From an uncultured Bacteroidales bacterium (GTDB lineage: Bacteria > Bacteroidota > Bacteroidia > Bacteroidales > Paludibacteraceae), in assembly GCA_937916355.1 (NCBI GenBank), contig CALFTM010000049.1, forward strand, positions 19-64,018: a stretch of DNA of 64,000 bases, written 5' to 3'. Each line of letters opens with the position of its first letter. The stretch's first letter is position 1. Below are positions 659 to 36,003 of this stretch, piece by piece. The translations under genes were made by a program, and so were the position numbers. Below the pieces are notes generated by a model, which saw only the letters and a program-made list of their open reading frames with translations, had not been told where the DNA came from and searched no databases.

Positions 659-912
659 TGGACTGACAAACCAACAAGTCTACAACATGCTAAAGATTTT
701 TTCACGAAAAAGTCCTCTCAAGATTATTGATTTGCCCATGGCTTATTTGGGTTCTTATTCATGAAGAGGCGACTGTTGCAAACGGCATTTTAAGAAATCA
801 GGTTATACATCCGTTCAAGAAAAAAGGGAAATGACAATTCCCCAAAAAAGAAAAAATCAAACATTTTTCAGAACAAAAAGGCGAAAATATTTCTTTTTCT
901 CAAATAAAAAAC

Positions 913-920
913 TAACTTTG
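913..920 (+). promoter_or_regulatory. Candidate -7 box TAacTTTG for hppA
   Basis: TAnnTTTG match about 120 nt upstream of the hppA ATG. The leader contains hairpin CCACTCT-TGACG-AGAGTGG (953..971). Confidence 0.4.
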
Positions 921-1041
921 CCCTAACAGAAACATTTAATAAATGTTAAAAACCACTCTTGACGAGAGTGGAGAGAACGAGTTAGTAATAGTGATACTTT
1001 CTGAAGAATCACAATTTTCTCACCTTTCAATTTAATATCTT

Positions 1042-3243: not shown

Positions 3244-3269
3244 ACACTCTACATGGTATCATATTCACT

Positions 3270-3305
3270 CCCCGCACTTCCTTATGGCTTGTGCGGGGAT
3301 TTTTT
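3270..3305 (+). terminator. Rho-independent terminator after hppA
   Basis: CCCCGCAC ... GTGCGGGG stem followed by a T-run. Confidence 0.8.
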
Positions 3306-3387
3306 GAAATAACATTGGTTATTACCTACAACAATATTTTTTATAAAAATAATCCTCTAAAAAAAAGGGACGTTACTATTTTTATTC

Positions 3388-3395
3388 TATTTTTG
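3388..3395 (+). promoter_or_regulatory. Candidate -7 box TAttTTTG for the pyrBI leader
   Basis: Exact TAnnTTTG. No clear -33 TTTG. Confidence 0.4.
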
Positions 3396-3416
3396 TAAAA
3401 AATTTAAAACAAAGAA

Positions 3417-3493
3417 ATGAAAGACGTCACCCGACATATATGATTCAACAAAACAGAAACCAATGCGATTTTGGCTCGCGTTGGTTTTTTTTT
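3417..3493 (+). promoter_or_regulatory. Putative pyrBI leader: 8-codon mini-ORF (MKDVTRHI) followed by a terminator-like attenuator hairpin
   Basis: Mini-ORF at 3417..3443. A 10-bp stem ACCAATGCGA/TCGCGTTGGT (one G-U pair) at 3459..3485 is followed by a run of 8 T. All of it lies about 55 nt upstream of the pyrB ATG. Confidence 0.4.
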
Positions 3494-3549
3494 GAATTAT
3501 CATATTCATTTAAAGCGAAATAAAAAACTAATTCTATAAATATAAAAAA

Positions 3550-4458
3550 ATGGCTGAAAAGAGTTTGGTATCAATCACGGACTATTCGAAGGAGAAAATC
3601 CTACAGATCCTTCAAAAGGCCGCTACCTTCGAGGAAAATCCGAATCAGGAGGTATTGAAGGGGAAGGTGATCGCGACGTTGTTTTTTGAACCTTCGACAC
3701 GCACCCGACTTAGTTTTGAGACGGCTGTGAACCGTTTGGGCGGACGAATCATCGGCTTTGCGGATGCTTCAACGACAAGCGGAACAAAAGGTGAGACTCT
3801 GAAAGACACCATCAAGATGGTGAGCAACTATGCCGACCTGATTGTGATGAGAAACCCGATCGAGGGGGCAGCCCGATATGCTGCAGAAGTTTCGGACGTG
3901 CCAGTGGTGAACGCAGGAGACGGTGCCAACCAACACCCCACACAAACCATGCTGGACCTCTACTCCATCATGAAAACTCAAGGGAAAATTGACAACCTGA
4001 AAATCTGTATGGTAGGTGATTTAAAATATGGCAGAACCATACATTCGCTAATTATGGCTCTCTCTCACTTCAATCCGACCTTTTCTTTTATCGCACCCAA
4101 AGAATTGGAACTACCAGAAGAATACAAACTCTTCTGCCGTGAACACAACATCCAATTCGAGGAGCATTTCGACCTGAGTGAAGAGAACATCGCTGATGCA
4201 GACATCCTCTACATGACACGCGTGCAAAAGGAGCGTTTCACCGACCTATACGAGTACGAAAAAGTGAAGGATGTCTACACCCTACGCAATAAGCTATTGG
4301 AGAATACCAAGCCCAATTTGCGCATTCTGCACCCACTCCCTCGCGTCAATGAAATCGACTACGATGTGGACAACAACGAGAAGGCATACTACTTCCAACA
4401 GGCAAAAAATGGTGTATACGCACGCCAAGCTGTGATTTGTGATTTGTTAGGTTTATAA
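3550..4458 (+). CDS. pyrB: Aspartate carbamoyltransferase catalytic subunit
   Basis: 302 aa with STRTR, HPTQ and HPLPR motifs. Followed by pyrI. Confidence 0.97.
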
Positions 4459-4470
4459 TTATCATACAAT

Positions 4471-4923
4471 ATGGAAAAAGAATTAAAAGTAGCGGCACTC
4501 TGCAACGGAACCGTAATCGACCATATCCCATCCGCAAAACTATTCCAAGTCATCTCCATTTTAGGATTAGACGGAATACCCAACCAAATAACTTTCGGGT
4601 ACAATCTGGAAAGTAAAAAATTGGGCAAAAAAGCGATCATAAAAGTGTCTGACAAATATCTAAGTCAGGAAGAGGTGAACAAAATCGCCATCTTAGCTCC
4701 TCAGGCAAAAATCAACATGATCAAAAATTACGAAGTGGCAGAAAAAATGGTACTCCAACTTCCAGATGAACTAATAGGAGTAATTAAATGCAAAAACCCC
4801 AAATGTATCACAAACAATGAACCCATGAGCACCAAATTCCGCACGATAGACAAAAAACTCAGTCTATTTAAATGTCATTACTGCGAAAGAATCATGGAAG
4901 GTGAAAACGCTGAAATTTTATAA
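4471..4923 (+). CDS. pyrI: Aspartate carbamoyltransferase regulatory subunit
   Basis: 150 aa. C-terminal Zn cluster CKNPKC ... CHYC. Starts 13 nt after pyrB. Confidence 0.95.
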   Translation: MEKELKVAALCNGTVIDHIPSAKLFQVISILGLDGIPNQITFGYNLESKKLGKKAIIKVSDKYLSQEEVNKIAILAPQAKINMIKNYEVAEKMVLQLPDELIGVIKCKNPKCITNNEPMSTKFRTIDKKLSLFKCHYCERIMEGENAEIL

Positions 4924-4927
4924 AGAT

Positions 4928-5494
4928 ATGAAGAGAGAATTTAAACCGGGAACCATGGTCTATCCGCTTCCTGCGGTAATGGTTTCTTGCGGAAAAACCG
5001 CTGAAGAATATAATATATTCACGGCATCTTGGGTCGGTACAATATGCTCCGAACCTGCCATGTGCTACGTGTCAATCCGTCCAAGCAGACACTCCTACGA
5101 CATCATAAAACGTAACGGAGAGTTTGTCATCAATCTGACTACCGAAGAATTGGCGTATGCAACAGACTGGTGCGGTGTAAAATCGGGAAGAGACTTCAAT
5201 AAATTTGAGGAGATGAAACTGACTCCTCAAAAGACCTCTGTCATCGATTCTGTAATCATCAAAGAATCCCCTCTTTCAATCGAATGTAAAGTAAAGGAGA
5301 TTATTCCATTAGGCTCACACGACATGTTCATCGCTGAGGTAGTGAACGTTTTAGCAGATGAAAAATTCATGGATCCTGAGACCGATGCATTCAAATTGGA
5401 AGATGCCAAACTCATGGCATATTCCCATGGAAATTATTTCAAGATGGGTGAAAAAATCGGCAAATTCGGCTGGAGTGTACAAAAGAAGAAATAA
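4928..5494 (+). CDS. Flavin reductase-like (flavoredoxin family) protein
   Basis: The start region (PGTMVYPLPAVMVSCG) and overall layout resemble the FMN-binding split-barrel family. I chose the ATG 4 nt after the pyrI stop rather than the overlapping track start at 4901. Confidence 0.8.
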   Translation: MKREFKPGTMVYPLPAVMVSCGKTAEEYNIFTASWVGTICSEPAMCYVSIRPSRHSYDIIKRNGEFVINLTTEELAYATDWCGVKSGRDFNKFEEMKLTPQKTSVIDSVIIKESPLSIECKVKEIIPLGSHDMFIAEVVNVLADEKFMDPETDAFKLEDAKLMAYSHGNYFKMGEKIGKFGWSVQKKK

Positions 5495-5506
5495 AGAAGG
5501 AAGTCA

Positions 5507-5544
5507 AGACCCGAAAGCGACCATTCACTTTCGGGTCTTTTTTT
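5507..5544 (+). terminator. Rho-independent terminator after the pyrBI-flavoredoxin unit
   Basis: AGACCCGAAAG ... CTTTCGGGTCT stem plus a T-run. Confidence 0.85.
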
Positions 5545-5592
5545 ACGCTTAAACGACATTCATGCAGTTTTGGTTAACACCACACATTCAAA

Positions 5593-5976
5593 TCACAAAA
5601 AAGCCTCAACATCGCACTCCAACGCATCAACCATCAGCTCCGATCTCTTGCGTTGGCTCATCTTGGCAATCACCTCGTTATAGCTATGGCGGACGAGTGT
5701 CTTAATCAGCAAGTCGCTCAACGACCCAAAGACATTCAGTTGGTTCCAATACTTTTTATTCATGTGCCAAGCCGGCACAATATCGGGATAACGGTCTCGC
5801 AACAAAATAGCATAATCCGGATTACATTTAAGCACAAACCACTCGGTATCTTCCAGATCCAGCATAGCAAAAATCTTCTCTCCCACCCGAAAAGCCAATG
5901 TAGTCTCATCAAACGGGAAATACTCCGTCACTTGCGGAAGGGAGAGACAATAATCTCTGAGGGTTTCTATGTTCAT
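5593..5976 (-). CDS. MmcQ/YjbR family DNA-binding protein
   Basis: 127 aa. LRDYCLSLP, KCNPDYA and HMNKKYWN resemble E. coli YjbR. Confidence 0.85.
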   Translation of the reverse strand: MNIETLRDYCLSLPQVTEYFPFDETTLAFRVGEKIFAMLDLEDTEWFVLKCNPDYAILLRDRYPDIVPAWHMNKKYWNQLNVFGSLSDLLIKTLVRHSYNEVIAKMSQRKRSELMVDALECDVEAFL

Positions 5977-6260
5977 TGGTATTTATTTTTTTATTGATAA
6001 AACGTTTATAATCCATTATAGCCTGATCAATAGAGAGTTCCGGGTCTTGCATTTGGTCTAAGCGTTGTGCTGCCACTTGCGCCATCCATTGTTTGAATGG
6101 CTCAGCCTTAGGTGAAGGTATTGCCTTTCAGGCAAGCCATAGGTCATTCCCTCTAAACCTCGGATGCAAGTTTTTCGCAAAGGTAATGAAAAGTTTAGTT
6201 AAAACAGATGTAAACATCAGTTTTATTTTCTTGGTACTGCTTCCCCAACAGAGGCATTTA

Positions 6261-6471
6261 CCTGCCTGCAAGGCAGTACTAAGCGCAGCGTTGGTAACCT
6301 GGGACATAGTCTCAGGTCAGGGGCAACAGCGACAGTAACCCAAAATACAATCTCGGCACGAAGACGCACATCCTCCCTGCCTGCAAGGCAGTACTAAGCG
6401 CAGCGTTGGTAACCTGGGACGAAGTCTCAGGTCAGGGGCAACAGCGACGGTAACCCAAAACACAATCTCGG
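6261..6471. repeat. Two tandem 96-bp direct repeats (6261..6356 and 6376..6471, period 115 bp), GC-rich and hairpin-rich. Candidate structured RNA or protein-binding element.
   Basis: Hand alignment gives 92/96 identical. Each unit has hairpins CTGCC-TGCAA-GGCAG and ACCTGGGAC-(ATA or GAA)-GTCTCAGGT. Two of the four differences fall in the second hairpin loop. The period is not a multiple of 3. Confidence 0.85.
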
Positions 6472-6546
6472 GCATAGAGACAAACCAAACCTCAGTCCTT
6501 GCATAAAAAACCATGCGAAAATGTTTCAACTAAGATGGAATTTCAT

Positions 6547-6554
6547 TATCTTTG
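6547..6554 (+). promoter_or_regulatory. -7 box TAtcTTTG for CDS 6576..7643
   Basis: Exact TAnnTTTG 22 nt upstream of the ATG at 6576. This places the tandem repeats outside that gene's 5' UTR. Confidence 0.5.
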
Positions 6555-6575
6555 TTATAAGTTGAAAGCTTTGGT

Positions 6576-7643
6576 ATGGACATTGTGAGGTTCATGTACA
6601 CACTAAAGCCCAAAGTCCACAGAACCTCTCTCCATAAAACATACAAAATGCAAGAAACCCGAGAACTCCTAATTAAACCTCGTACAGGTAGTGCGATCCT
6701 AAGTTCCAGTATTTTTTTCATTGTAAGTGCAGTATTCGCATATATTGGATATGCAAACAACAACCGTTCGTTTTTCTTTGAAGAATACAACCTAGAATTC
6801 ATAGGAGCGATGTTAGTAGCAATATTATTTGCGGTTTTGGGCTTGCTTCAGGTAGGGTCTTCAATCCAAAGGAGGAAAAATTATATTCGAGTAGACTCTA
6901 AAGGAATCACCATTAAAGCGCATGATAATCGCAATAGATCCAAACTACATCAATGCTCCTATGATTGGAATGAGCTATCTTCTTATACGCTGGACATTAT
7001 TCCCGACAGAAGCAATAAGAAATCAACGATTTATAATGAGCAAACTGAAGGATACACAATTAAATTGTACGACTCCCATGGGAAAGAGTTGCAAAATATT
7101 CAATTAGACTATTTTTTCCCTCTATCAAGTATGGAGAAACTGGAGGAATTCATGGGATCACACTTGACCAACAAAATTATCTGTGATTTCTCAAAAATCG
7201 GTAAAGTCTCCTTTTATGAAAGGAAGATGGATTGGTTTTTAATAAAACTCATCATGGTTTTTTTATTATTAATCGGGGCATTAATTATGACAAATAATTT
7301 GATCGCTTTTAACACCCCAACATTAATAATTTTCTTAATAATCCCAATTGTTTTTGCTCCTACAATATACTTAGTACTCAAATACGGAAACAAGAGCAAA
7401 GATCAGGGGGAAGCAGACCTCTCTATCGACAAGGAGGGAATCACAGTGAATATGCACGAATTAAAAAAAGTGAAAAACATAAGCCATAGCAGTTACCATT
7501 ACTATTTTTTTGAGGGTAACGAAATGAACCTATATGATGCCAATAAAAAATTAATTTACTGTTTAGACTGCTCCAAATTAGAAAATTCTAAATATGTGAA
7601 AATGGTTTTCACGCAGTTTCTCCAAGAGAAAACGGAAGTCTAA
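6576..7643 (+). CDS. Hypothetical membrane protein with an internal two-module duplication
   Basis: 355 aa. Two blocks of (TM pair + soluble segment): IRVDSKGITIKAHD... and LSIDKEGITVNMHE... Confidence 0.7.
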   Translation: MDIVRFMYTLKPKVHRTSLHKTYKMQETRELLIKPRTGSAILSSSIFFIVSAVFAYIGYANNNRSFFFEEYNLEFIGAMLVAILFAVLGLLQVGSSIQRRKNYIRVDSKGITIKAHDNRNRSKLHQCSYDWNELSSYTLDIIPDRSNKKSTIYNEQTEGYTIKLYDSHGKELQNIQLDYFFPLSSMEKLEEFMGSHLTNKIICDFSKIGKVSFYERKMDWFLIKLIMVFLLLIGALIMTNNLIAFNTPTLIIFLIIPIVFAPTIYLVLKYGNKSKDQGEADLSIDKEGITVNMHELKKVKNISHSSYHYYFFEGNEMNLYDANKKLIYCLDCSKLENSKYVKMVFTQFLQEKTEV

Positions 7644-7713
7644 GGTGTTAGATAAAACAACAAAACACTACGTCATATACTTGGATGGGTGAAATTGTAA
7701 TGAAATAGCACAC

Positions 7714-7750
7714 AAAAAGCCTAAATTCTTTTGTAGAACTTAGGCTTTTC
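7714..7750. terminator. Bidirectional terminator hairpin between convergent genes
   Basis: AAGCCTAAATTC ... GAACTTAGGCTT with flanking A and T runs. Confidence 0.7.
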
Positions 7751-7770
7751 TTATGCTCAAACTCACCTAT

Positions 7771-10700
7771 TTATTTTTTGAAAGTGATTTTATAGGTATT
7801 GAAATTAGTCGTGTTTGTTTCAAAGTCTCCCGCCCATACGACAATTGTAAGCACTCCCGTCGTCTTATCATAATCAGCGCAATATTGCGCCAACGGACTC
7901 ACCTCTACCGCAACATCAGATGAAGTGTAATCCTCTGCGATAGTATGGTTAAAGACATTTGAATTGAAGTCCTCATCCTCCACATCATTCACCACTACAG
8001 AAGTCACCAGAGCCTCATAAACGAATGTGGTGGAGAACGTCAACACATAAGTGTGATAGTTTGTCGGGTCTTTTTGAAAGTTTCCTCCTTTCACCGTAAT
8101 TATCAATGAATTGGATTGGCTGTCGAAAACCTCACTTGTAACCGCCAAGTCATCTGCAGAATACTTGATTTTCATATTTGAATATGAACCATCAATCAAA
8201 TATTCGTACTTATCCTTTGAGAACTCTCCTATCTGCACTCCATTTACCGTCAAATTAGTCAACTGAGAACCATAGACGGTAGGGTCGTTGAACGAAATAT
8301 TATATTCATGATAATTAGACGAGTTGGTCGCAATATCCCCACCTTCGACACGAAGCGTCAACACAAAATTCTTTTCATCGTAAGTGGCAGTAACGGTTGC
8401 TGCGCTATCTGCAGTATATGTGACAGTCACATCGCTGTAGAATTCAGTTGAAACATATTGGAAACTATTTCTATCAAATCCTTCAATCGTAGTTCCATTT
8501 ATCTTCAAATCCACCAACTTAGACTCTAAAGCCTTACCAAACTGAAATTTGTAGACTTTGTAGTTATCCTCGAACTTTGCAATATCACTTCCCTTCACTG
8601 TAATAGAAAGGATGTTTGTTTCTGCATCATACGATTCTTCCACAGTCGCATCATCACTTTCCGCATAGTACAAAATTTTTGCTGTTTCGTAAACAACTGC
8701 ACCCATAGAGTATTCATATTTGTCAGGAGAGAAACCTGCAACATTCACACCATTCACCTTCACAGAGGAAAGCGAAGATGGAGCATAGAACTGAACTTTA
8801 TAGGTATGTACATTAGAAGGATTCGTAGCAACATCAGCACCTGAAACCACCAATGTCAACAAATTGGTCGCATCGTCAAAAGAAGGTTTTACCCTTGCCT
8901 CTGCATCCGCCGTATATGAGAGGAGATCTTCATACTCTTCATAAGTACCACGGATCAAATATTCGTAATTGGTCTTAGCAAAATTATCAACCAACATTCC
9001 ATTCAAAGTCAAAGATGTGAGGAACGAACCATAAGAAGCATGGAACTGCAATGTGTAAGTATGCTTGTTATCAGGGAACAAATCTAAATCGTTACCCGAA
9101 ACAACAATTGTCAACAAAGAAGTCTCCGCTTCATAAGACATTTCCGCAGTCGCACCATCTGCCACAACATAAGCGACCTTACCTGCTTCGTATGAGTAAG
9201 AAGAGAGGTCGTAGTTATACTTGTCAGAACGGAAAGAAGGAACGGTCACGCCCTCAAACGTCAAATCGGTCAAAACTGATTTTGCACAGAATTGCACCTC
9301 ATAAGTGTGCGAATTGGCACTGTTTGAAGCGAAATCACCTCCCTTCACAACAATCGTCAAGCGGTTGGTTGAAGCATCGAAAGAGAGAGTCGCACTTGCT
9401 TCTGCATCAACCTCATAGGTCACCATTCCATCCGTATAACTCTGTGCCACCTTATACTCATAAACATCAGATGCGAAGTTTGCGATTGTCACACGGTTGA
9501 TTTTCAAATCAGTCAACATAGAACCGTATGCGTCATGGAATGAAATTTTGTAAGTATGGAGATTACTTTCATTTACGTCATAGTCTCCTCCCTTAACCAC
9601 TATCGTGTAAGTTTGGCTTACTGCATCATAACTTGTTTCGACAACGGCCTCCTCACTCTCCGTAAAAGAAACGGTTGTCTCACCCTCTGTGTAGACATCT
9701 GGAACAGAATAAGAGTACTTAGTGGAAGAGAAACCAGAAACCGACACGCCGTTCACCTTCAAATCAGTAAGGAGAGATTCATACGGCGCATGATAGTGGA
9801 TGGTGTATGTGTGATGGTTATTCGCATTTTCAGCAATATCCTTTCCTTTTACCGTAATTGTCAGTGTATAAGTTGATTCATCGAAAGCAGATGTATATTC
9901 AGCCTCCTCATCTGCCACTATCACCAACTGCGACTTATCATAAGTGTTTTTCACTGTGTACTCATAGGTATCTGGTGAGAAATTCGCAATTGCATTCCCC
10001 GCGATGGTAAGGGATTTCAACTGCGAACCATACGGCTCGTGGAATTTGAAAGAATAGACTTTCTCATCATCTGCATTGACCGTCACTTTCAGGGTATTTG
10101 TAGCTTCATCAAAAACCTCCGAAGTGGATGCACATTGAGGTGCAGAATAAGTGATTTTCGACTTCACATTGTTATAAACCCTATCAATAGTGTACTCTAA
10201 TTTATCAGCAGAGAAATCAGCCAAGGCCACACCGTCAACTTCAAAGCTATTCAATTTCGCCTTGCAACCAAATGTCACAGTGTAAGTATGTAAATTAGCT
10301 GGATTCACAGAATAGTCATCACCCTTAACTGTAATCGTCAAAACCTTCGACACTGCATCATAAGACTGCTCTACGGTTGCATAACGACCGTCACTCTCGC
10401 AAGTGACCATTCCTTCTGTGTACGCACCATTTACCCCATAACTGTACACATCCTTTGAAAAACCTGCAATAGAAGCACCATTTACAGAAAGAGACTTCAA
10501 CTTGGAATTGTAGATCATTTCAATGTCGTCCACATGAATTTCATCACCATCACCTCCTTTTCCTGCAAGATAGTTGGTAGAAATTGTGGCAAGAGCATAA
10601 GATGGACGTTCTGAGCCAGAAAGTGCTTTCTTCGGAGTACGCTTGGCGTCACCTTCACTCACGATATCATGAGTTTCTCCATAATAGAAAAAAGGACAAG

Positions 10701-25208: not shown

Positions 25209-25247
25209 AAAAAAGGCGACCGACAAACTCAGCCGCCTTTTCTTTAT
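25209..25247. terminator. Bidirectional terminator between convergent genes
   Basis: AAAAGGCG ... CGCCTTTT stem with flanking A and T runs. Confidence 0.75.
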
Positions 25248-25260
25248 TTTGCTATGATAA

Positions 25261-26829
25261 CTACACGAGCGTCAACATTACTTGACCTGCCTTCACCTTC
25301 TCGTTTTTAGAAGCTCCCGGACGAACCTTTCCGCTGGTAATCCATGCAATCAAATTATCAATCAGAATAATCTTAGGTTTTTCCTCTCCCACATTTCTGA
25401 TGAGGTACACCTGATAGTTCAAATTGTTATCCAAGCAAGTATTCCACTCCTTTTCAGATAAGAAGAATGTCTTGCGATCGTCCTTTGCACCTTTACATGC
25501 GATAAAATACTCAGTCTCTCGGTTTTCGTATCCAGTGATTTCAAAGTCATACCCCTGAGTCTCCTTACCATTCTGATTACACCATTTCACACGACCAGGA
25601 TATTTCGTCTGTAAGAAATCATTCAAAAACTCTTCACTCGCTCTGGAAGTCGCCTCGCGCTCTTTCGCATCCAAATCAATGATAACATTTCTGTCTCGCT
25701 CTTGCCAATGACTGATCGTCACCATCAAATCCTTCTTGTTATTGTTCAAAGCTGCAATCTCCTCCTCCTTATCTCCAATGAGAGATTTCAAACCTTGGAT
25801 TTTTTCATTCGCCTCATCGAGCGCATTCCTCAACTGTTCAATAGTTTCCAAGTTGGCAGCCTCAGCCTCTCTTAAGGCTTCATTTTCTTTAATGACACTC
25901 TCTCCGTTTTGAAGAACCTTCTTCACCAACTTGACATTCTCATCAAGGACTTCAGAGATTGATTTGTTATGTTCAGTAATTAAACCTACCGCGTCAAAAT
26001 CCTCTCCCTTAATATGTTCTACCTTCTTCACCTTCACGTCGACACTCTTCACGGAGAAATCATCTAAATTCACCTTTTTAGGTTCAGGAAGACTCTCCTC
26101 TACAATCTTCTCCTCTTCCACCTCCACTGGTTCATCCTCTTTAGGAGACTCCTCTTGTAACTTTTCTGCCGGTGCTTCATACGACATTGGAGCCTCCTCC
26201 ATCATAGGAGCTTCCTCCTTCTTCTCCTCTTTTTTAGGAGTCGCCACACCTTTCCCTTCCAACAAACCAATGAGAGGATTAAGGGCATTACGGATCGCGA
26301 GAACATTGTCAAAATCCTCTGGAGAGATGTTACAACAAACGCCATTGGTTTTCTCTGCCACACGCTGAGCGATCTGCAAATCTTGCTCACGCATACCAAT
26401 ACCCACAATGTTCACCATAACATCAGATTGAGCGAGATCAACTCTCATTTCGTAATCTCCGCCATCGGTTTCTTCTCCTGCGGTAATAAGAATGATTTGC
26501 TTACGGTCCGCCTCTACAGACTCAAAACATTCAAGAGATTCCTCCACAACCGCAGACAATGGTGTGCCTCCATTAGGGATCGGCAAAGATGTCGCCTTTT
26601 GGATAAAATCGGACTTTGCATTCTCACCCATGTCAATAGACTTGATGATAATCGGATTCCCTAACACCGAAAGAAAAGTTCTCACTCCAAAATTATCTTC
26701 ATTACGAAGATTGGGAATTAATTCGTTAACCAAAACATTTTCCGTAACAGACAATTTACCATCCATTTTATCGGAAATGTCGATAAGAAAATCAATAGCT
26801 TGCTTCATGATATTGAGATTTAGTTTCAA
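25261..26829 (-). CDS. vWA domain / acidic linker / coiled coil / DUF3883-like (PD-(D/E)xK fold) protein
   Basis: 522 aa with no signal peptide. vWA-like FLIDISDKMDG, GGTPLS and IILITAGEETDG. Glu/Lys/Pro-rich linker and heptad-like region. The C-terminus GYDFEI...EYFIACKG...FFLSEKEW...YQVYLIRNV resembles DUF3883. Confidence 0.75.
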   Translation of the reverse strand: MKLNLNIMKQAIDFLIDISDKMDGKLSVTENVLVNELIPNLRNEDNFGVRTFLSVLGNPIIIKSIDMGENAKSDFIQKATSLPIPNGGTPLSAVVEESLECFESVEADRKQIILITAGEETDGGDYEMRVDLAQSDVMVNIVGIGMREQDLQIAQRVAEKTNGVCCNISPEDFDNVLAIRNALNPLIGLLEGKGVATPKKEEKKEEAPMMEEAPMSYEAPAEKLQEESPKEDEPVEVEEEKIVEESLPEPKKVNLDDFSVKSVDVKVKKVEHIKGEDFDAVGLITEHNKSISEVLDENVKLVKKVLQNGESVIKENEALREAEAANLETIEQLRNALDEANEKIQGLKSLIGDKEEEIAALNNNKKDLMVTISHWQERDRNVIIDLDAKEREATSRASEEFLNDFLQTKYPGRVKWCNQNGKETQGYDFEITGYENRETEYFIACKGAKDDRKTFFLSEKEWNTCLDNNLNYQVYLIRNVGEEKPKIILIDNLIAWITSGKVRPGASKNEKVKAGQVMLTLV

Positions 26830-27277
26830 GCAATAAAATTACATATTTTTCTGCACAGAATGAAATTTGAACGACAAATTTATATCCAAATCATCATTTT
26901 TTTCTCAAAATTCGCTTTTCATAACCATCATACCAGATATAAATAATGGGTAATCCTACCACTAAAAACAAAGAATTATCTACATAATTGTTTTAATTTT
27001 AGGACATTAGATTTTTCACAAAATAATTTTTTAGATATTTTTTGATTTTTTTACTCCTAATAATAGGCTAACATAAAATAAATATCTAAATTTGTAGCAT
27101 TAAAAAGACCCTAAATTGTGTTGTTCTATATATTTCGGGGACCAGTTTGCTGTGAAGCAAGTTGGTTCTTTTGCGTATATTCTTGTCATTAAAATTTCGT
27201 TTTATGATTTTTATTTATACTTTTGTGAATGTAAACTCAAATTAAAACCGTTTGAAACAAAAATTAAATATATACCT

Positions 27278-27778
27278 ATGAAATTACGCAGTAATCTGAT
27301 AAAGGGTGTAGTATATGCCTTTTTAGGGTCATTAGCAGTAGGGATTTCTGCTAATGCAAGTAATTATGTCTCCATCATAAAAAAAGATGGGACAGTCAAA
27401 CAGTTTGAAATACAAGAGGACGGAAAACTTTTCTTTGAGGGGAATGACATGGTAGTCTCCGAATCTGCGAGTGTTGCCGAAAACAAAATTGATTTGGCGG
27501 AAATAGAAAAGGTTTTGTTCAATAAAAGCGGTGCGGGTACCGGATTGGCAGATGACTTAACAACAGAATCCATCTCTGTTTTTCCTAACCCCACTACCAA
27601 CTTTGTATACATCTCTGACACACAAGATGGCAGCATGGTCGAAATCTTTTCATGGAATGGTATGCTTTTGAATGTGCAAAAATACTCCGTAGAACGAGGA
27701 GTCTCTTTAAAAGAATATCCTACGGGATTGTACACACTCAGAGTGGATGGTCGAACTTTTAAAATTTACAAAAAATGA
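27278..27778 (+). CDS. Small secreted protein with a T9SS C-terminal sorting domain
   Basis: 166 aa from MKLRSNLIKG. The C-terminus VFPNPTTNFVYIS...GLYTLRVDGRTFKIYKK fits the type-A Por secretion tail. The track's TTG start at 27116 was rejected. Confidence 0.8.
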   Translation: MKLRSNLIKGVVYAFLGSLAVGISANASNYVSIIKKDGTVKQFEIQEDGKLFFEGNDMVVSESASVAENKIDLAEIEKVLFNKSGAGTGLADDLTTESISVFPNPTTNFVYISDTQDGSMVEIFSWNGMLLNVQKYSVERGVSLKEYPTGLYTLRVDGRTFKIYKK

Positions 27779-29655
27779 GAAAATCTATTTTTACAATAGC
27801 TGCGCTTTTTTGCGCTTCGGTTTCTTTTGCGCAAAACTCCGATTATGTGATGAATATCATCCAAAACGGAGAAAAGGTTTATACTGAAAAGTGTGAGGAT
27901 GTGGATTCCATCAAACCTCTCAACGATAAAATATCCATTTTTGAGGGAAGCAAAGTCAAAACTTTCGACACTGCCCTAACAGAAATGACTTTTGAGGAGA
28001 TCGTCGCTGCAAACGACACGGTGGAAATCATTTACGGGGAAGAGGTAAGAATCTCAAACCCATACGAAGAGACCATCCTCATATCCGTTGACGGGAACGA
28101 TGTGAATGTGAATTGCGTCAACCAACTGAAAGATGTTGTCTATAAACTCTCCGGAACTTCTGAAAATGGATGTTTTGTCATCGAAACACCAAGAAAGTTC
28201 ACATTGGTTCTGGACAACCTCTCATTGAAATCACAAGGAGAAACTTCTCCTATCCGTTCTTTCTCCAGCTCAACGATGCAGATCGTTCTTCCTGACGGAA
28301 CATCTTCTTATCTGGAGGACTCCGCTAACGACACCTGCAATGCGACCCTCCGCAGCAAAGGTCAAATCATATTCTCGAATGAAGGAGATGGAAAACTCAC
28401 AATAGAGGCAAAACAGAAAAGAGCCATACAGACTGGAGACTATTTAGAAATCAACGGAGGTAATATCTTCGCCAATTCGACATTAGGAGATGCCGTAAAG
28501 GCAAACGACTACATCGAAATGAATGGTGGTTCTCTTACCACAACTGGCACTGGTATCGAGATAGAGAAGGGTTATGCACTCATCAACGGAGGTACTATCA
28601 CTTGCACGTCCAATGAAGCAGACATCAATATGTTTAAGGTAGCGATGGATTCTACGATTGCCGCATCTGCTGAAAATGGAACATTCACCATGAATGGAGG
28701 AAAACTCATTTTGAATGTGAACGGGGATGCTTCTAAGGGTGTCAAAGCTGAAAACGACATCATCATCAACGGAGGTGAAATCGTGGGTGTCGTTAAAGGT
28801 AGTGCATTAGAATTTGGAGAGGACGTATCATACGCTTCTTTAATGAAAGCCGACAATACACTGCAAGTGTTAGGAGGAAAAATTAATATTGAACTGGATG
28901 AATTTGCACAAGGATCCCGTGGACTCACCTCTGATTTTGGCATCACTTTTGATGGTGGAGCTAATGTTAAAATCATTGCAGGATGTGAATTTTACGAGAC
29001 AAATAGAGGAAAGGTAAAAGAGGGAAACGGAATAAAAACTGATGGCGACATCATTTTCAACGATTGCAATATCGAAATCATCTCCACCTACGATGAAAAT
29101 GGCGCATTCTGCGTTACCACAGAGGGTGATAAGATAGAAGTAAACGAAAACGCGAATGTTTACCTATATTCTACATCTGAGTGCGCTGCAAAGGGTGCAA
29201 GTTCTACTCTATTTATCAAGGGAGGAACAATCATCGCATACGCCAGCAGCACTTTGAGAAAAGTGACACTGACTAAATTGAGCATCGCATACCACAGCGG
29301 ATACTACATTGGCATCGGATATGGACTAACACTCTCTAATATTTCTTCCAATGGTAGCCAAAAGGGAGCGTTCGCAGATGCCACGTACCCAATCAACAGC
29401 GCATTCCAACTTAAAGACACAAACGGAAATTCTGTCTTTACTTTCTCTGGAATGGAAAATGGTTCTGAAACTGCCTATTTGCAAGTATTCGCACCAGTCT
29501 TAACAGAAGGGGCTCAACTCACCTATAACCTTGGCGGAACGACATCTGGAGGTACTACTTTCCACGGATTCAGCACTGATGCCAATTATAGTGGAGGAAC
29601 TGATTATGCGTTTACAGCACCAACGAAATCCAATATTGTGAAGATTACAAAATAA
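27775..29655 (+). CDS. Secreted beta-helix-like protein (possibly the Cthe_2159-type carbohydrate-binding family)
   Basis: 626 aa with signal peptide MRKSIFTIAALFCASVSFAQ. Repetitive G/N/T-rich strands (INGGNI, MNGGSL, INGGTI, MNGGKL, INGGEI). The start overlaps the upstream stop (ATGA). Confidence 0.7.
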   Translation: MRKSIFTIAALFCASVSFAQNSDYVMNIIQNGEKVYTEKCEDVDSIKPLNDKISIFEGSKVKTFDTALTEMTFEEIVAANDTVEIIYGEEVRISNPYEETILISVDGNDVNVNCVNQLKDVVYKLSGTSENGCFVIETPRKFTLVLDNLSLKSQGETSPIRSFSSSTMQIVLPDGTSSYLEDSANDTCNATLRSKGQIIFSNEGDGKLTIEAKQKRAIQTGDYLEINGGNIFANSTLGDAVKANDYIEMNGGSLTTTGTGIEIEKGYALINGGTITCTSNEADINMFKVAMDSTIAASAENGTFTMNGGKLILNVNGDASKGVKAENDIIINGGEIVGVVKGSALEFGEDVSYASLMKADNTLQVLGGKINIELDEFAQGSRGLTSDFGITFDGGANVKIIAGCEFYETNRGKVKEGNGIKTDGDIIFNDCNIEIISTYDENGAFCVTTEGDKIEVNENANVYLYSTSECAAKGASSTLFIKGGTIIAYASSTLRKVTLTKLSIAYHSGYYIGIGYGLTLSNISSNGSQKGAFADATYPINSAFQLKDTNGNSVFTFSGMENGSETAYLQVFAPVLTEGAQLTYNLGGTTSGGTTFHGFSTDANYSGGTDYAFTAPTKSNIVKITK

Positions 29656-32798: not shown

Positions 32799-34823
32799 CT
32801 ATTTCTCGAACAAAATAAAGTTTCCTTGTCGATTTTCAAAGATTGGCATCTGTCTACCTTTAGTTGCTTTACGAACTTGGTCTCTGATATAGAGTTCCAG
32901 AGCATCCAAAGTGACATTTCCGTTTTCATCAACCGCCGCACCCTTGATTCCTTCTAACAGTGCTTTGGTGAAAATTCCGTTTTTCCATTCATCCGACTCT
33001 GTCGACTTCTGGGAAGCCGTACTTGAGTAGAATCCGATCACATCCGGGTCTGCCAACGAGAAACCTTCCGTAACAGATTTCACACCATACATCGAACCAG
33101 AATGACACGCATCCATGAAAATAATGATACGACATCTCTTATCTTTCAATCTCTTCAACGCACTTTTGATGATATCGAAATCAACCGCAGTGGTAAACAA
33201 ATCGTTGCTTTCTGCATTACAAGACAAGAAGTATGTTTCGAATCCCTCTTTCGCACCATGTCCAGAGAAGAAAAGCAACACCACATCACCTTGTTCAACC
33301 GTATTTACCAAATTAGATAGACCTCTCTTAATATTTCGGTCGGTTGCCTCTTTATCTTTAATCAAATTGGCTGTCGCCAACATTTTGTATTGAGACAAAT
33401 TACAAGTCTTTACAGTGTTTAGGAAATCTTCCGCATCTTTTGCGGCATTTTGAAGTTTCAAATCACTCTGATCATAGTCACTCACACCCACAGAGAAGAC
33501 ATGCAACGCAGGTTTCGGACGGTCTCCGCGATAGTGGAGTAACACCACCGCAGGATCACTATTCTGTCCTTTGTTATCTTTTGCGATCAACTGCACTCTA
33601 CAATTCGCCACCCTTGGCAATGTTAGTGTGAGCAACTTTCCGACCTGTTTCACACCCTTCGTGCGAGGGTATAACTCTCCGTTCACATAAGCAATGATTT
33701 CAGGCTCTGACCCATCATGAGTGGTTGTTTCATAAATGAAAGTCACCTCAGTATTAGAATAGTAAGAACCCTCTTTCGGACTTAAAATTTTGATAGTAGG
33801 CGCGCCCGCCACTTTTGTAGTGGTGTTTTTCACTGGTTTTGACGGCGGAGTTACCGGTGGAGCAGGCGGTGAGACTGGCTTCTTTTCTTCCACTTGTTGA
33901 GCAGCCAAATTAGGAGTTTTGTAGGTGAACGACTCCAAATTAGGCACCTGAGAAGCTGGCACTTTTGCCTTAGGAGTCTTTTTTTGCCATGCCAAAGCAG
34001 CAGTCCTCGCCTCCGTTGCAGTAGCATATCGAGGCTTCACCACAAACGTTCCAGAACGGTCGATCGCACACCATTTCCCTTTGTACTTCACAACGGCGAA
34101 AAAGGTCTGTGAATTGAACATAGAGTTTTTTTCGACATTGTCAAACACTGGCTTGATCACCCAATTTCCCAAATAGTTGACAAAACCGATTTTTTTCACA
34201 TTACCCTTCAATCCGATGTAAATGTTTTCTCCGACCGGAGCACCTTTTTGCCACTCCGCAACTGCCACTTTCACTGCAGAAACAGAAGGGAAATAAGGGT
34301 TGATGAACATCACTCCTTCAGTATTCAGACAACCCCATTGACCATCCAACTTAACAATAGAGTAGGAAAAACCCTTGCTGAAATTGGTTTCCGGATCCAC
34401 CTCTTCGTAAATCGGACGAAAATACATCTCTCCCGTATAAGTCACAAAACCCCAACGGTTGTAAGAAGCATCGAAAACCGGATAAAGGAACTTATCCTTT
34501 GAAGCATTTGTTGAAGCCATACGAGCAGCCCGAGCAGCCAATTCCTTGGTTTCAAACACTGGCTTGGTATAAAAATTCCCTTTTCGATCAATACCACCCC
34601 ATTTGCCGTTCAATTTGACTACCGCATACTTTTTGCTTCCAAAAGCATTCGACACATCATACTCTTCAAATTTCGGTTCTACCACCCACGTAGAACCATT
34701 TTTGAATCCCCACCTACCGGTTTTAGGACTCTTCTCCGCTTTTTGCGCACTCAATGGCAAAGCCATCAAGAAAAATGCCAAAAAAGCCACCAGTTTACGC
34801 CATGAAATATTTCTCATTATCAT
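32799..34823 (-). CDS. Exported WG-repeat / Ig-like / caspase (peptidase C14) domain protein
   Basis: Signal peptide ...FFLMALPLSAQ. Repeated KWGxIDxxG-type WG motifs and a Pro-rich linker. Caspase His in FFSGHG (codon 33258..33260) and Cys in DACHSG (codon 33105..33107). The start could be 34823 or 34817. Confidence 0.85.
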   Translation of the reverse strand: MIMRNISWRKLVAFLAFFLMALPLSAQKAEKSPKTGRWGFKNGSTWVVEPKFEEYDVSNAFGSKKYAVVKLNGKWGGIDRKGNFYTKPVFETKELAARAARMASTNASKDKFLYPVFDASYNRWGFVTYTGEMYFRPIYEEVDPETNFSKGFSYSIVKLDGQWGCLNTEGVMFINPYFPSVSAVKVAVAEWQKGAPVGENIYIGLKGNVKKIGFVNYLGNWVIKPVFDNVEKNSMFNSQTFFAVVKYKGKWCAIDRSGTFVVKPRYATATEARTAALAWQKKTPKAKVPASQVPNLESFTYKTPNLAAQQVEEKKPVSPPAPPVTPPSKPVKNTTTKVAGAPTIKILSPKEGSYYSNTEVTFIYETTTHDGSEPEIIAYVNGELYPRTKGVKQVGKLLTLTLPRVANCRVQLIAKDNKGQNSDPAVVLLHYRGDRPKPALHVFSVGVSDYDQSDLKLQNAAKDAEDFLNTVKTCNLSQYKMLATANLIKDKEATDRNIKRGLSNLVNTVEQGDVVLLFFSGHGAKEGFETYFLSCNAESNDLFTTAVDFDIIKSALKRLKDKRCRIIIFMDACHSGSMYGVKSVTEGFSLADPDVIGFYSSTASQKSTESDEWKNGIFTKALLEGIKGAAVDENGNVTLDALELYIRDQVRKATKGRQMPIFENRQGNFILFEK

Positions 34824-34827
34824 ATAA

Positions 34828-36003
34828 TTATTTTTTTTCTTTTTTATATATCGTCGTATCACTCATGTCCGTAGTAGAGAGACCTTTTCTTTTTCTCCAC
34901 TTCAGATACAAGAAATAAAATATCTCTCCCGAATATCCTCCCATACCAGTACCTAATAAAGCATAGACAAGACGGACATTGTATTGTTTTTCCATAAACA
35001 AATAACCTCCGATGAAAAGGAGAAAAATCACCAACACAATTTGTGTGGAGGTGGCAAGGAAACCAGAAAAGTCGTTATACTCTTCGTTCAGCCAACAATA
35101 GATGACACAGAAAAGGAACGTCACGACAAGCCCCAATATAAACGCATGAGTATCGGTCATATTGTCTATCAGGCGATCGGGTTTCGTAAGCGTCGAAATA
35201 GAATAACCATGGATGGTCGTTCCACAGATACGTCTGCTACCATCGATTTTCACAGGTATTTCGTGGAAGTCCCTCAAATCTTTAAAATCACCCATCAGAA
35301 AAATGCGGTCCTTCACCTCTTCCGGGAACGGATTGTCATAAATATGAATCTTATCGAAGAACATCCGTTTGTAGTTTATCAATTCAGTATCGCCTTCACG
35401 AGCCTCCCACTTCTCATAAACATCCGGATATGCCATCTTCACAATCTCATGTACATAAGTACTCAACGTAGTATCTCCAAAAGTAAGAGTCTTGTTAAAA
35501 TTTCGGACTGTCTCATTCTCCACATTCACACAAGCCTCAACACAACCCGTCTCCTTCACGAAGAAAGACTCCTCCTTGCGGAAAGAGTCATAGGTTGGCA
35601 CCATCCTACATGCCGCAATCACATTTTTACAACGAGAAATGACCCTTACCAAACTGTCATTTGCAACCGTATCCATCGAATTAGGTCCAAAAATAACGTC
35701 CAGAGCAATCACCTTCGCACCCATATCATGAAGACGTTGAATTCCTCCGGCGATTTCAGCCCTTGAATAGCATCCCGAAATATCATACAAGACAATGTCT
35801 TGATTATAGTCCATCACCTCATCCGAATTACTATTCATGATTTCAAAATAGGTATCCGTGATGCTGAATTTATTTATCGTGGTACTTACAGGATCCATAA
35901 ATGCTGAACTAAAACCTATTTTACCCACGATGGTGCAAAGACATAAAATCACACAAAGCACCATCAACGCATGAGGGATATATTGCTTAAACAGTTTTTT
36001 CAT
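34828..36003 (-). CDS. Stand-alone CHASE2-domain membrane protein (no output domain)
   Basis: 391 aa. N-terminal TM, an extracytoplasmic region with IVLYDISG...IQRLHDMGAKVIALDVIFGPN, three C-terminal TMs and a short basic tail. Confidence 0.75.
   Translation of the reverse strand: MKKLFKQYIPHALMVLCVILCLCTIVGKIGFSSAFMDPVSTTINKFSITDTYFEIMNSNSDEVMDYNQDIVLYDISGCYSRAEIAGGIQRLHDMGAKVIALDVIFGPNSMDTVANDSLVRVISRCKNVIAACRMVPTYDSFRKEESFFVKETGCVEACVNVENETVRNFNKTLTFGDTTLSTYVHEIVKMAYPDVYEKWEAREGDTELINYKRMFFDKIHIYDNPFPEEVKDRIFLMGDFKDLRDFHEIPVKIDGSRRICGTTIHGYSISTLTKPDRLIDNMTDTHAFILGLVVTFLFCVIYCWLNEEYNDFSGFLATSTQIVLVIFLLFIGGYLFMEKQYNVRLVYALLGTGMGGYSGEIFYFLYLKWRKRKGLSTTDMSDTTIYKKEKK

Follow-up and report, generated by a model that had tools for sequence, protein, structure and literature searches.

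A reverse-strand gene in a 64,000-nucleotide stretch of contig CALFTM010000049.1 (the window), from an uncultured bacterium of the family Paludibacteraceae (Bacteroidales), encodes a 515-aa protein in which a von Willebrand factor A (vWA) head is joined by an acidic linker and a long helix to a NOV_C domain and a short beta tail (Table 1). As judged by profile comparison, its C-terminal half is the nuclease and dimerization module of the Tiamat protein TmtA, and proteins combining vWA with NOV_C are, by the same approach, a large, unnamed and mainly Bacteroidota family. The window protein falls in a subclade whose members have lost critical residues of both domains, and the explanation that we favour, with about an even chance of its being correct, is that the gene is a vertically fixed, probably non-cleaving dimeric adaptor or scaffold drawn from a defence-type nuclease family.

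A Tiamat effector module joined to a vWA head

The PADLOC profile of TmtA (PDLC03972) matches residues 279-497 of the window protein (E-value, 4.8e-19), over profile positions 1083-1295 of 1302. When a profile of the last 146 residues, made from 13 sequences, was searched against 1.84 billion representative proteins, 310 representatives were found with E-values up to 1e-3, 121 of them with E-values up to 1e-10; the 15 long proteins (1252-1778 aa) that were recovered in this way and scanned are all TmtA, with E-values of 6e-108 or better. According to the Tiamat preprint (10.64898/2026.09.30.754977), NOV_C is the PD-(D/E)xK nuclease domain of Tiamat, is tethered by a flexible linker, and is predicted to dimerize along with a C-terminal extension of 12-36 residues folded into additional beta strands; the preprint describes the B. 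cereus protein as an active single-stranded DNase (ssDNase) and an N-terminal GHL/Hsp90-like ATPase as required both for curation as Tiamat and for defence. The HATPase and SACS families were not found in the window protein by Pfam, indicating that it has no such ATPase domain.

Shorter proteins with this module are numerous. Among the representatives of 280-800 aa, NOV_C is present in 77 of 79 and a Pfam vWA-type family (E<=1e-4) in 52 of 79 by hand count, and of 92 mid-length proteins aligned over the C-terminal module, 72 are matched by a hidden Markov model of the window protein's own head, so that the gene is not the orphan that a preliminary description had taken it to be. The nearest ESM Atlas cluster is labelled 'hypothetical protein' and contains 59 members from Bacteroidota, 100 % with NOV_C and 49 % with VWA. 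We found no name for the family in PADLOC, NCBIfam or ESM Atlas, and no NCBIfam family fits the 515-aa protein (best E-value, 0.031). That description had also failed to recognize the fusion as a known system, and our literature search agrees with it, having yielded no paper on the combination of vWA and NOV_C; the words 'vwa' and 'willebrand' are absent from the Tiamat preprint.

Degeneration of both sites in the window subclade

The two sites were compared in 54 aligned members, 43 of them canonical and 11 belonging to the window subclade (the window protein, P0016, P0022, P0026, P0038-P0043 and P0047). The metal ion-dependent adhesion site (MIDAS) of the vWA domain reads D-S-S-T-D in 37 of the 43 canonical members and D-S-S-S-D in one, the N-terminal columns being missing from the other five, and the acid of their (D/E)xK triplet, which lies in the motif I-E-C-K-G, is Glu in 38 and Asp in one. 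None of the 11 subclade proteins has the third Ser of the MIDAS (K, N, Q or F is found) or its final Asp (A, T or G), and the Thr column is T in one, S in three and A in seven. The nuclease acid is Ala in ten and Thr in one, and acidic in none, in keeping with the early suspicion that the nuclease is either inactive or rewired; on this alignment the A-C-K triplet of the window protein is an instance of a family-wide replacement of ExK by AxK in the subclade, in which the vWA metal site is disabled too. The window protein itself has an incomplete catalytic set (Asp plus (D/E)-x-K), with D421 and K439 present and A437 in place of the acid, and lacks a complete MIDAS (DxSxS, Thr, Asp), with K14 for Ser and A110 for Asp. 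The departure of its DISDK motif from DxSxS, which had been remarked on previously, is therefore real, but that account was incomplete in that the final Asp is missing as well. The distant members P0038-P0043, with 32-36 % identity, have the same degenerate pattern.

Four metagenome proteins (P0068, P0073, P0141 and P0147) have kept the MIDAS and lost the nuclease Glu, two of them (P0141 and P0147) being without the nuclease Asp as well, and these look like either stages on the way to losing the nuclease site or cases in which it was lost independently. A midpoint-rooted FastTree phylogeny of the C-terminal module, built from 145 columns in 115 sequences, recovers the subclade with Ala or Thr at the acid as monophyletic (11 tips, support 0.92) and groups it with a canonical subgroup (support 0.90); since the subclade is nested beside canonical proteins, the losses look derived. 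An order in which the nuclease site was lost first and the MIDAS second is weakly suggested.

Structure of the protein and its predicted dimer

The N-terminal vWA-like domain proposed from motifs is borne out by matches above cut-off to Pfam VWA (PF00092; E-value, 4.6e-8; 33.9 bits against 23.8; residues 7-169) and VWA_3 (PF13768; E-value, 6.1e-7; 30.0 bits against 27). In an AlphaFold2 model made with 20 sequences, residues 1-186 adopt the Rossmann-like alpha/beta vWA fold with a predicted local distance difference test (pLDDT) value of ~85, and this part aligns with the solved vWA domain 9c4f_I at Z 20.6 (root-mean-square deviation 2.3 over 172 residues) and with 49 more entries at Z of at least 15.9. 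Foldseek gave PDB entry 3ibs as the best match of the head (E-value, 7.9e-9), and in the structural alignment this entry scores Z 19.3. Rpn10, TFIIH p44 and INTS13/14 are among the structural matches, and vWA domains without a MIDAS in other complexes bind their partners without metal.

Beyond the head, residues 188-278 have pLDDT values below 50, and the linker stretch 187-278 (92 residues) contains 21 Glu, 14 Lys and 8 Pro; the model then runs as an unbroken helix from 274 to 402. The acidic, Pro-rich linker and coiled coil of the preliminary description thus have their counterparts in the model. The helix presumably forms a coiled coil, its matches to coiled-coil families in Pfam being weak, and the TmtA profile match begins within it, at residue 279.

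The C-terminal block had been likened to DUF3883, the former name of Pfam NOV_C (PF13020), and it does match this family (48.2 bits, the cut-off being 22.1; E-value, 1.1e-12) over residues 395-481 and profile positions 5-89 of 91. In the model of the whole protein, residues 403-515 are confidently predicted (pLDDT ~85) as a helix, three strands, a helix and a strand. When the C-terminal part was modelled separately, most of its 50 listed fold matches were PD-(D/E)xK proteins, including tRNA-splicing endonucleases, FAN1/VRR_NUC and restriction enzymes; Foldseek with this model found nothing at E<=0.001 (the best match being Hjc 1ob8_B, 2.3e-2), and residues 370-515, compared by sequence with solved structures, gave only a chance 25-residue match (E-value, 0.54). 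The predicted PD-(D/E)xK fold rests jointly on the Pfam match and on structural matches of middling quality.

The NOV_C core and the tail are the most constrained parts of the full-length forms. Identity to the window protein among 19 homologues is 49-93 % in the NOV_C core and 55-94 % in the tail, compared with 39-88 % in the vWA domain, 24-79 % in the helix and 12-56 % in the linker. Across 20 sequences, with identities down to 36 %, 65 columns are invariant, and these include D421, K439 and E454 and the tail residues P497, A499, N502, K504, V505 and K506. Four residues after the Lys lies D443 (25480-25482, reverse strand), a position that is Asp in eight of ten subclade members, Glu in one and Gly in one, and mostly G, S, T or N in canonical members.

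Two copies of residues 380-515 were predicted to form a homodimer with a score of 0.60, against 0.06 for the best control; among proteins of known structure, 20 of the 30 solved as same-chain pairs attain that mark, as does one of the 23 solved as single chains. Three runs share at least 95 % of contacts, with pLDDT of at least 88, and the predicted interface consists of residues 455, 459, 462, 487, 490-493 and 496-512, with strand 502-507 pairing with that of its twin. A dimer held together by the tail would explain the conservation of the tail, and the high score may in part reflect likeness to the Tiamat module.

Distribution in the genus and a short form

Of 24 other genomes of the genus, 23 contain a strong match to the window protein: a full-length protein in 11, a split gene in one and a form with only vWA, linker and helix in 11; the genome without such a match is 88 % complete. 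None of 300 other genomes of the order, drawn from 208 other genera and including three genomes from two other genera of the same family, matches at E<=1e-10. The full-length sister proteins are 48-60 % identical to the window protein, and the divergently transcribed neighbours, encoding a protein with a type IX secretion system (T9SS) sorting tail and a Cthe_2159-domain protein, are kept in 9 of the 11 full-length sister loci, one of the two non-syntenic loci stopping 621 nt upstream at a contig end. Conserved gene order of this kind shows no functional link. In the split copy (locus L024, G017:C71:213-1705, reverse strand), on a 2386-bp contig, residues 1-218 and 226-514 are in two frames, reflecting either a frameshifted pseudogene or an assembly error.

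The short forms in the eight loci that were fetched, of the 11 (L025-L032), are 368-409 aa long and end right after the helix; they have the same degenerate vWA head (DISDK, GGAP, TNGED), a Pro/Ala-rich linker and a terminal coiled coil. A weak ZapB-like match (E-value, 5e-4) was also seen in them. They are located elsewhere in the genome, none of the eight loci having the neighbours of the long form, and five of the eight are divergent from an operon encoding a 270-aa protein, a PCMD-domain protein and two outer-membrane beta-barrel proteins, beyond which L025 has a T9SS-tailed GH5 cellulase. Long and short forms therefore both adjoin cell-surface or carbohydrate genes, possibly by chance. 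The short forms are a single clade in a vWA tree (support 1.0), with their placement within the genus weakly supported (0.37-0.66), and because all outgroups of the degenerate subclade carry NOV_C, a single loss of NOV_C within the genus is the simplest explanation. No sampled genome of the genus has both forms, and the short-form cluster has a single named member, a 'hypothetical protein' from a Paludibacteraceae metagenome-assembled genome (MAG).

Genomic context of canonical members

Canonical loci were collected with two peptide patterns from a 12-sequence canonical alignment, taking one genome per species, and the 14 loci obtained are a sample and not a census. All are from Bacteroidota, namely Hymenobacter, Flavisolibacter, Emticicia, Pontibacter, Lewinella, Botryobacter, Altibacter, and Chitinophagales and Bacteroidales MAGs. 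Mobile or defence neighbours are found in 6 of the 13 loci examined and metabolic or unknown neighbours in the other seven. At L038 (Flavisolibacter longurius) the vWA-NOV_C gene is directly downstream of a gene for a 2308-aa TmtA-helicase fusion (779-7705, forward strand), in which TmtA is joined to a superfamily 1 helicase (AAA_11/AAA_12, MkoA-like). At L039 (an Emticicia MAG) it is directly upstream of a gene for a 1629-aa TmtA (E-value, 0), followed by a defence-associated reverse transcriptase (DRT) gene (RT_UG19; E-value, 1.6e-118), all three being in a row on one strand (2152-9118, forward). The vWA-NOV_C gene may thus be a recurrent partner of Tiamat. Elsewhere it adjoins a type II methylase, an integrase and a PDC-S64 candidate (L045), lies near an Mrr-type nuclease (L041, Pontibacter chinhatensis), and adjoins an integrase and an IS3 transposase (L044) or an IS4/5 transposase (L034, Hymenobacter koreensis).

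These surroundings are suggestive of a defence or mobile lifestyle for the canonical members. A tblastn search with the canonical member P0049 found no match in phage records. Four plasmid records matched, each over 34-38 % of the query at 27-28 % identity and solely in its vWA part, without NOV_C, so that these searches provide no evidence for a phage or plasmid location. The window copy, which is fixed in its genus and mostly syntenic among housekeeping genes, is unlikely to be a mobile defence module. The early idea of a one-gene defence or sensing module is still reasonable as a hypothesis where the canonical relatives are concerned, but it does not extend to the window gene.

Comparison with known systems

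Tiamat (TmtA; PADLOC PDLC03964-03972) is a single-gene anti-phage GHL ATPase-nuclease, and shares with the window protein a homologous helix, the NOV_C fold and the beta tail; a tail-mediated homodimer is predicted for both and in both a flexible linker tethers the nuclease. The window protein differs in having neither the GHL/Hsp90-like ATPase nor the TPR-like or Fold B middle region, its vWA domain replacing the ATPase head, in being 515 aa long rather than ~1300-1700, and in the loss of the ExK Glu. The canonical vWA-NOV_C proteins (for example at L034, L038, L039 and L041) have the same domain order and tail, with 24-32 % identity over their full length; unlike the window protein they retain the full MIDAS (D-S-S-T-D) and the D..ExK residues, those aligned are shorter (347-542 aa), and they occur sporadically in scattered Bacteroidota genera and MAGs.

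The closest published concept (Kaur et al. 2020; PMC7159879) is that of the vWA-MoxR ternary conflict systems, whose effectors include nucleases with a restriction endonuclease (REase) fold fused C-terminally to vWA, so that both kinds of domain are in one polypeptide in the same order; vWA domains lacking one or both MIDAS aspartates are also noted in that paper. The systems described there differ in having a MoxR AAA+ partner and a third component, and their REase domains are NaeI-like, Mrr-like or of a new clade, not NOV_C. No MoxR-type (AAA_3) or VMAP protein was reported among the 29 open reading frames (ORFs) at the window locus (~17 kb) or among 77 neighbouring ORFs of the 13 canonical loci, where the AAA families belong to a ClpB-type protein and to the TmtA-helicase fusion.

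HmaA, the SNF2 helicase of the Hma system, likewise has DUF3883 at the C-terminus of a larger protein, and the introduction of the Tiamat preprint states that the isolated domain nicks supercoiled DNA (10.64898/2026.09.30.754977). It differs, on a comparison by description, in its helicase partner, in belonging to a multi-gene methylase-linked system and in a catalytic site that is presumed intact. With the BatB-type cytoplasmic/membrane vWA protein of Bacteroides (3ibs), from the same phylum, the window protein shares the fold alone (18-19 % identity); Bat proteins have no nuclease-fold domain, and this genome encodes its Bat-like paralogue, of 345 aa, in a separate frame on a different contig.

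The gene, its flanking DNA and its neighbours

The frame 25261-26829 on the reverse strand is open, as the preliminary description stated, but the TTG that it used as the start lies seven codons too far upstream; the ATG at 26808 (MKQAIDFLID...) is where each of the 19 aligned homologues starts, and the gene is thus 25261-26808. The motifs listed in that description (DISDK, GGTPLS, ITAGEETDG, GYDFEI, EYFIACKG, FFLSEKEW and YQVYLIRNV) are all present in the translation. The N-terminus (MKQAIDFLIDISDK) has no signal peptide or membrane anchor by eye, no predictor having been run, and the protein is probably cytoplasmic.

Table 1. Features of the vWA-NOV_C gene and its surroundings (window coordinates; residues are those of the 515-aa protein)
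Feature	Position	Strand	Remarks
Whole gene	25261..26808	-	515 aa plus stop; ATG common to all homologues
vWA domain, degenerate MIDAS	26251..26808	-	Residues 1-186; D10-x-S12-x-K14, T82, A110
Disordered linker, acidic, Pro-containing	25990..26250	-	Residues 187-273; least conserved part
Single long alpha-helix	25603..25989	-	Residues 274-402; continues into first nuclease-fold helix, which carries E392
NOV_C/DUF3883 core, PD-(D/E)xK fold (predicted)	25357..25602	-	Residues 403-484; D421, K439, E454 and Q466 kept; A437 replaces the ExK Glu
Conserved C-terminal beta tail	25264..25356	-	Residues 485-515; most of the predicted homodimer interface
Terminator-like hairpin, 15 pairs	25209..25243	.	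Between the gene and the convergent DUF454 gene; with an A-run and a T-run on opposite sides
Divergent intergenic region	26809..27277	.	469 bp; 24.3 % G+C, against 40.9 % for the window
Divergent neighbours	27278..29655	+	166-aa protein with signal peptide and T9SS sorting tail; 626-aa Cthe_2159-domain protein

The gene is monocistronic, being convergent with the DUF454 gene on one side and divergent from its neighbour on the other, and its reported isolation between a bidirectional terminator and an AT-rich region agrees with the hairpin and the intergenic region in Table 1. The neighbouring ORF (27116-27778, forward strand) was listed from a TTG at 27116, and its most likely start is the ATG at 27278, which gives a signal-peptide-like N-terminus (MKLRSNLIKGVVYAFLGSLAVGISANA); it is from this start that the length of 469 bp for the intergenic region follows. 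The region presumably holds the promoters of both the vWA-NOV_C gene and the neighbouring operon; no motif was established in it. Three metatranscriptome libraries, all of one gut study, include contigs that align to 25256-26792 with 95-100 % likeness and also take in parts of the flanking genes; none of them extends across 26840-26946 or 27161-27267, and a run of unrecorded type covers the whole stretch. These contigs are a weak hint of transcription, of a kind that cannot show transcription itself, its level or its ends.

Genes within ~17 kb encode ribosomal proteins L9, S18 and S6, RuvB, Asd, a PHP phosphoesterase, a cation antiporter, an acyltransferase and an ABC-F ATPase. Of the 28 ORFs that surround the gene in this interval, none has a specific PADLOC defence match, apart from a caspase-domain protein and generic matches of the ABC-F ATPase, and the window gene, contrary to the early idea of a defence module, is outside any defence island. 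The caspase-like domain is at the C-terminus of a 674-aa protein (32799-34823, reverse strand) encoded 6 kb from the gene, with E-values of 2.4e-20 to the NCBIfam 'caspase, EACC1-associated type' and 1.4e-16 to the PADLOC caspase profile; a 391-aa ORF without an assigned family (34828-36003, reverse strand) adjoins it, and the two are a possible conflict-system pair.

An adaptor, a nuclease or a relic

On the explanation that we favour, the ancestors of the window protein would have been vWA-headed nucleases sharing the effector module of the Tiamat defence protein, and in their canonical relatives a MIDAS-bearing head would capture a protein ligand, with the dimeric NOV_C nuclease then acting as effector. 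Two chains of the window protein would pair through tail and NOV_C, and probably along the long helix too, and so present two vWA heads on flexible acidic tethers of ~90 residues; the heads would bind a partner protein without MIDAS metal, and the disabled nuclease fold would act as a dimerization knob and perhaps as a non-cleaving surface for binding nucleic acid. Fixation of the gene would date from the ancestor of one Bacteroidales genus, with vertical inheritance ever since as a host gene rather than a mobile defence gene. A more ambitious version, which has two parts and which we consider rather doubtful, is that the vWA-NOV_C proteins are an undescribed family of single-gene immune sensors ('mini-Tiamat') and that the window gene is a domesticated member of it. 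A metal-dependent vWA head would here replace the GHL ATPase clamp as the trigger of the same dimeric ssDNase; domestication would have involved loss of the nuclease Glu and then of the MIDAS, fixation as a core gene of a gut Bacteroidales genus in the form of a pseudo-enzyme scaffold, and, in half of the genus, further paring of the protein to vWA and coiled coil.

Several points weigh against the adaptor explanation. Its mechanism draws on sequence and predicted structure; the C-terminal part when modelled separately has a mean pLDDT of 57.5, a poor value that is due to there being only 13 close sequences in its alignment, and its best fold match (Hjc 1gef_A; Z 8.1, root-mean-square deviation 3.0 over 96 residues) is middling. 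The trees were built from 145 to ~200 columns with only Shimodaira-Hasegawa-like supports, and the wider nuclease-degenerate grouping that adds P0073, P0141 and P0147 is weak (support 0.65). A fixed chromosomal position is compatible with a defence role, and the defence role of the canonical relatives, which have mobile or defence neighbours at 6 of 13 loci, is itself only a suggestion. Finally, D421, K439, E454, Q466 and E392 are invariant or nearly so, which would be needless in a pure dimerization knob and makes some ligand binding or residual catalysis likely, and D443 could be a replacement carboxylate for the lost Glu. Taken together, the retained residues and the subclade D443 argue that the old active-site pocket is likely still to bind something.

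These last observations lead to the main rival, which we regard as unlikely: a rewired but working nuclease, possibly a defence effector, with D421 and K439 kept, a second carboxylate from D443 (or E433 or E454), and a vWA domain that senses its trigger without MIDAS metal. Its attractions are the conservation of D421, K439, E454, Q466 and E392 within a protein whose NOV_C domain is the most constrained, an Asp in the D443 column of eight of ten subclade members that is not the rule in canonical ones, and the Tiamat, DRT, methylase and Mrr neighbours of some relatives; some nuclease folds, moreover, cut without canonical residues, an example given in the Tiamat preprint being the HNH enzyme PacI (10.64898/2026.09.30.754977). 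It has to contend, however, with the replacement of the metal-binding ExK Glu by Ala or Thr in 11 of 11 subclade members, with P0039, which is without the Lys as well, and with eleven species of the genus that manage without the entire NOV_C domain. Nor does the locus resemble a defence locus, since there is no defence or mobile context over ~17 kb and it is syntenic across species whose proteins are only 45-60 % identical.

That same synteny invites a quite improbable alternative, that the protein is a DNA-binding regulator of the divergent cell-surface operon, its dead nuclease fold binding the 469-bp intergenic region. The divergent layout is retained in 9 of 11 full-length sister loci and the intergenic region is both long and AT-rich, but synteny among congeners is expected through descent alone, no repeated operator-like motif was sought or found, and the short forms without NOV_C adjoin different genes (none of the eight fetched loci shares neighbours). 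Other PD-(D/E)xK families are thought, according to PMC3424549, to act in transcription when fused to DNA-binding domains, whereas Pfam finds no helix-turn-helix or other known DNA-reading domain in the window protein. We think it very improbable that the gene is simply the decaying remnant of a defence gene, without function and drifting to loss. Degeneration of both catalytic-type sites, the gene split into two ORFs in one sister genome and the loss of NOV_C in eleven sister species could all be read in this way, yet 11 of the 12 long-form sister genomes have an uninterrupted frame, the 20 aligned sequences share 65 invariant columns, with NOV_C and tail strongly conserved, and proteins as distant as P0038-P0043 (32-36 % identity) keep the same degenerate pattern; the coverage of the coding region by contigs of three metatranscriptome libraries, all from one study, adds a weak hint to the same effect.

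Significance

Tiamat has only recently been characterized as an ATPase-ssDNase, and its relatives extend to plants and animals. The findings bear on the open question of how its nuclease module is used on other heads, to which vWA is now added as a new one; the whole family and its graded loss of sites are more interesting than the window gene itself. They also counsel caution in annotation, in that a NOV_C or TmtA-like match should not be equated with a defence nuclease until the ExK site and the genomic context have been checked. Within one family there is a graded series, from proteins with both sites intact, through those that have lost the nuclease site and those that have lost both, to those from which the nuclease domain has been deleted, and this offers matched natural pairs of active-looking and disabled proteins for probing what NOV_C does when it does not cut. 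If the canonical members are defence genes, the series would show an immune effector becoming a structural or adaptor protein of the host.

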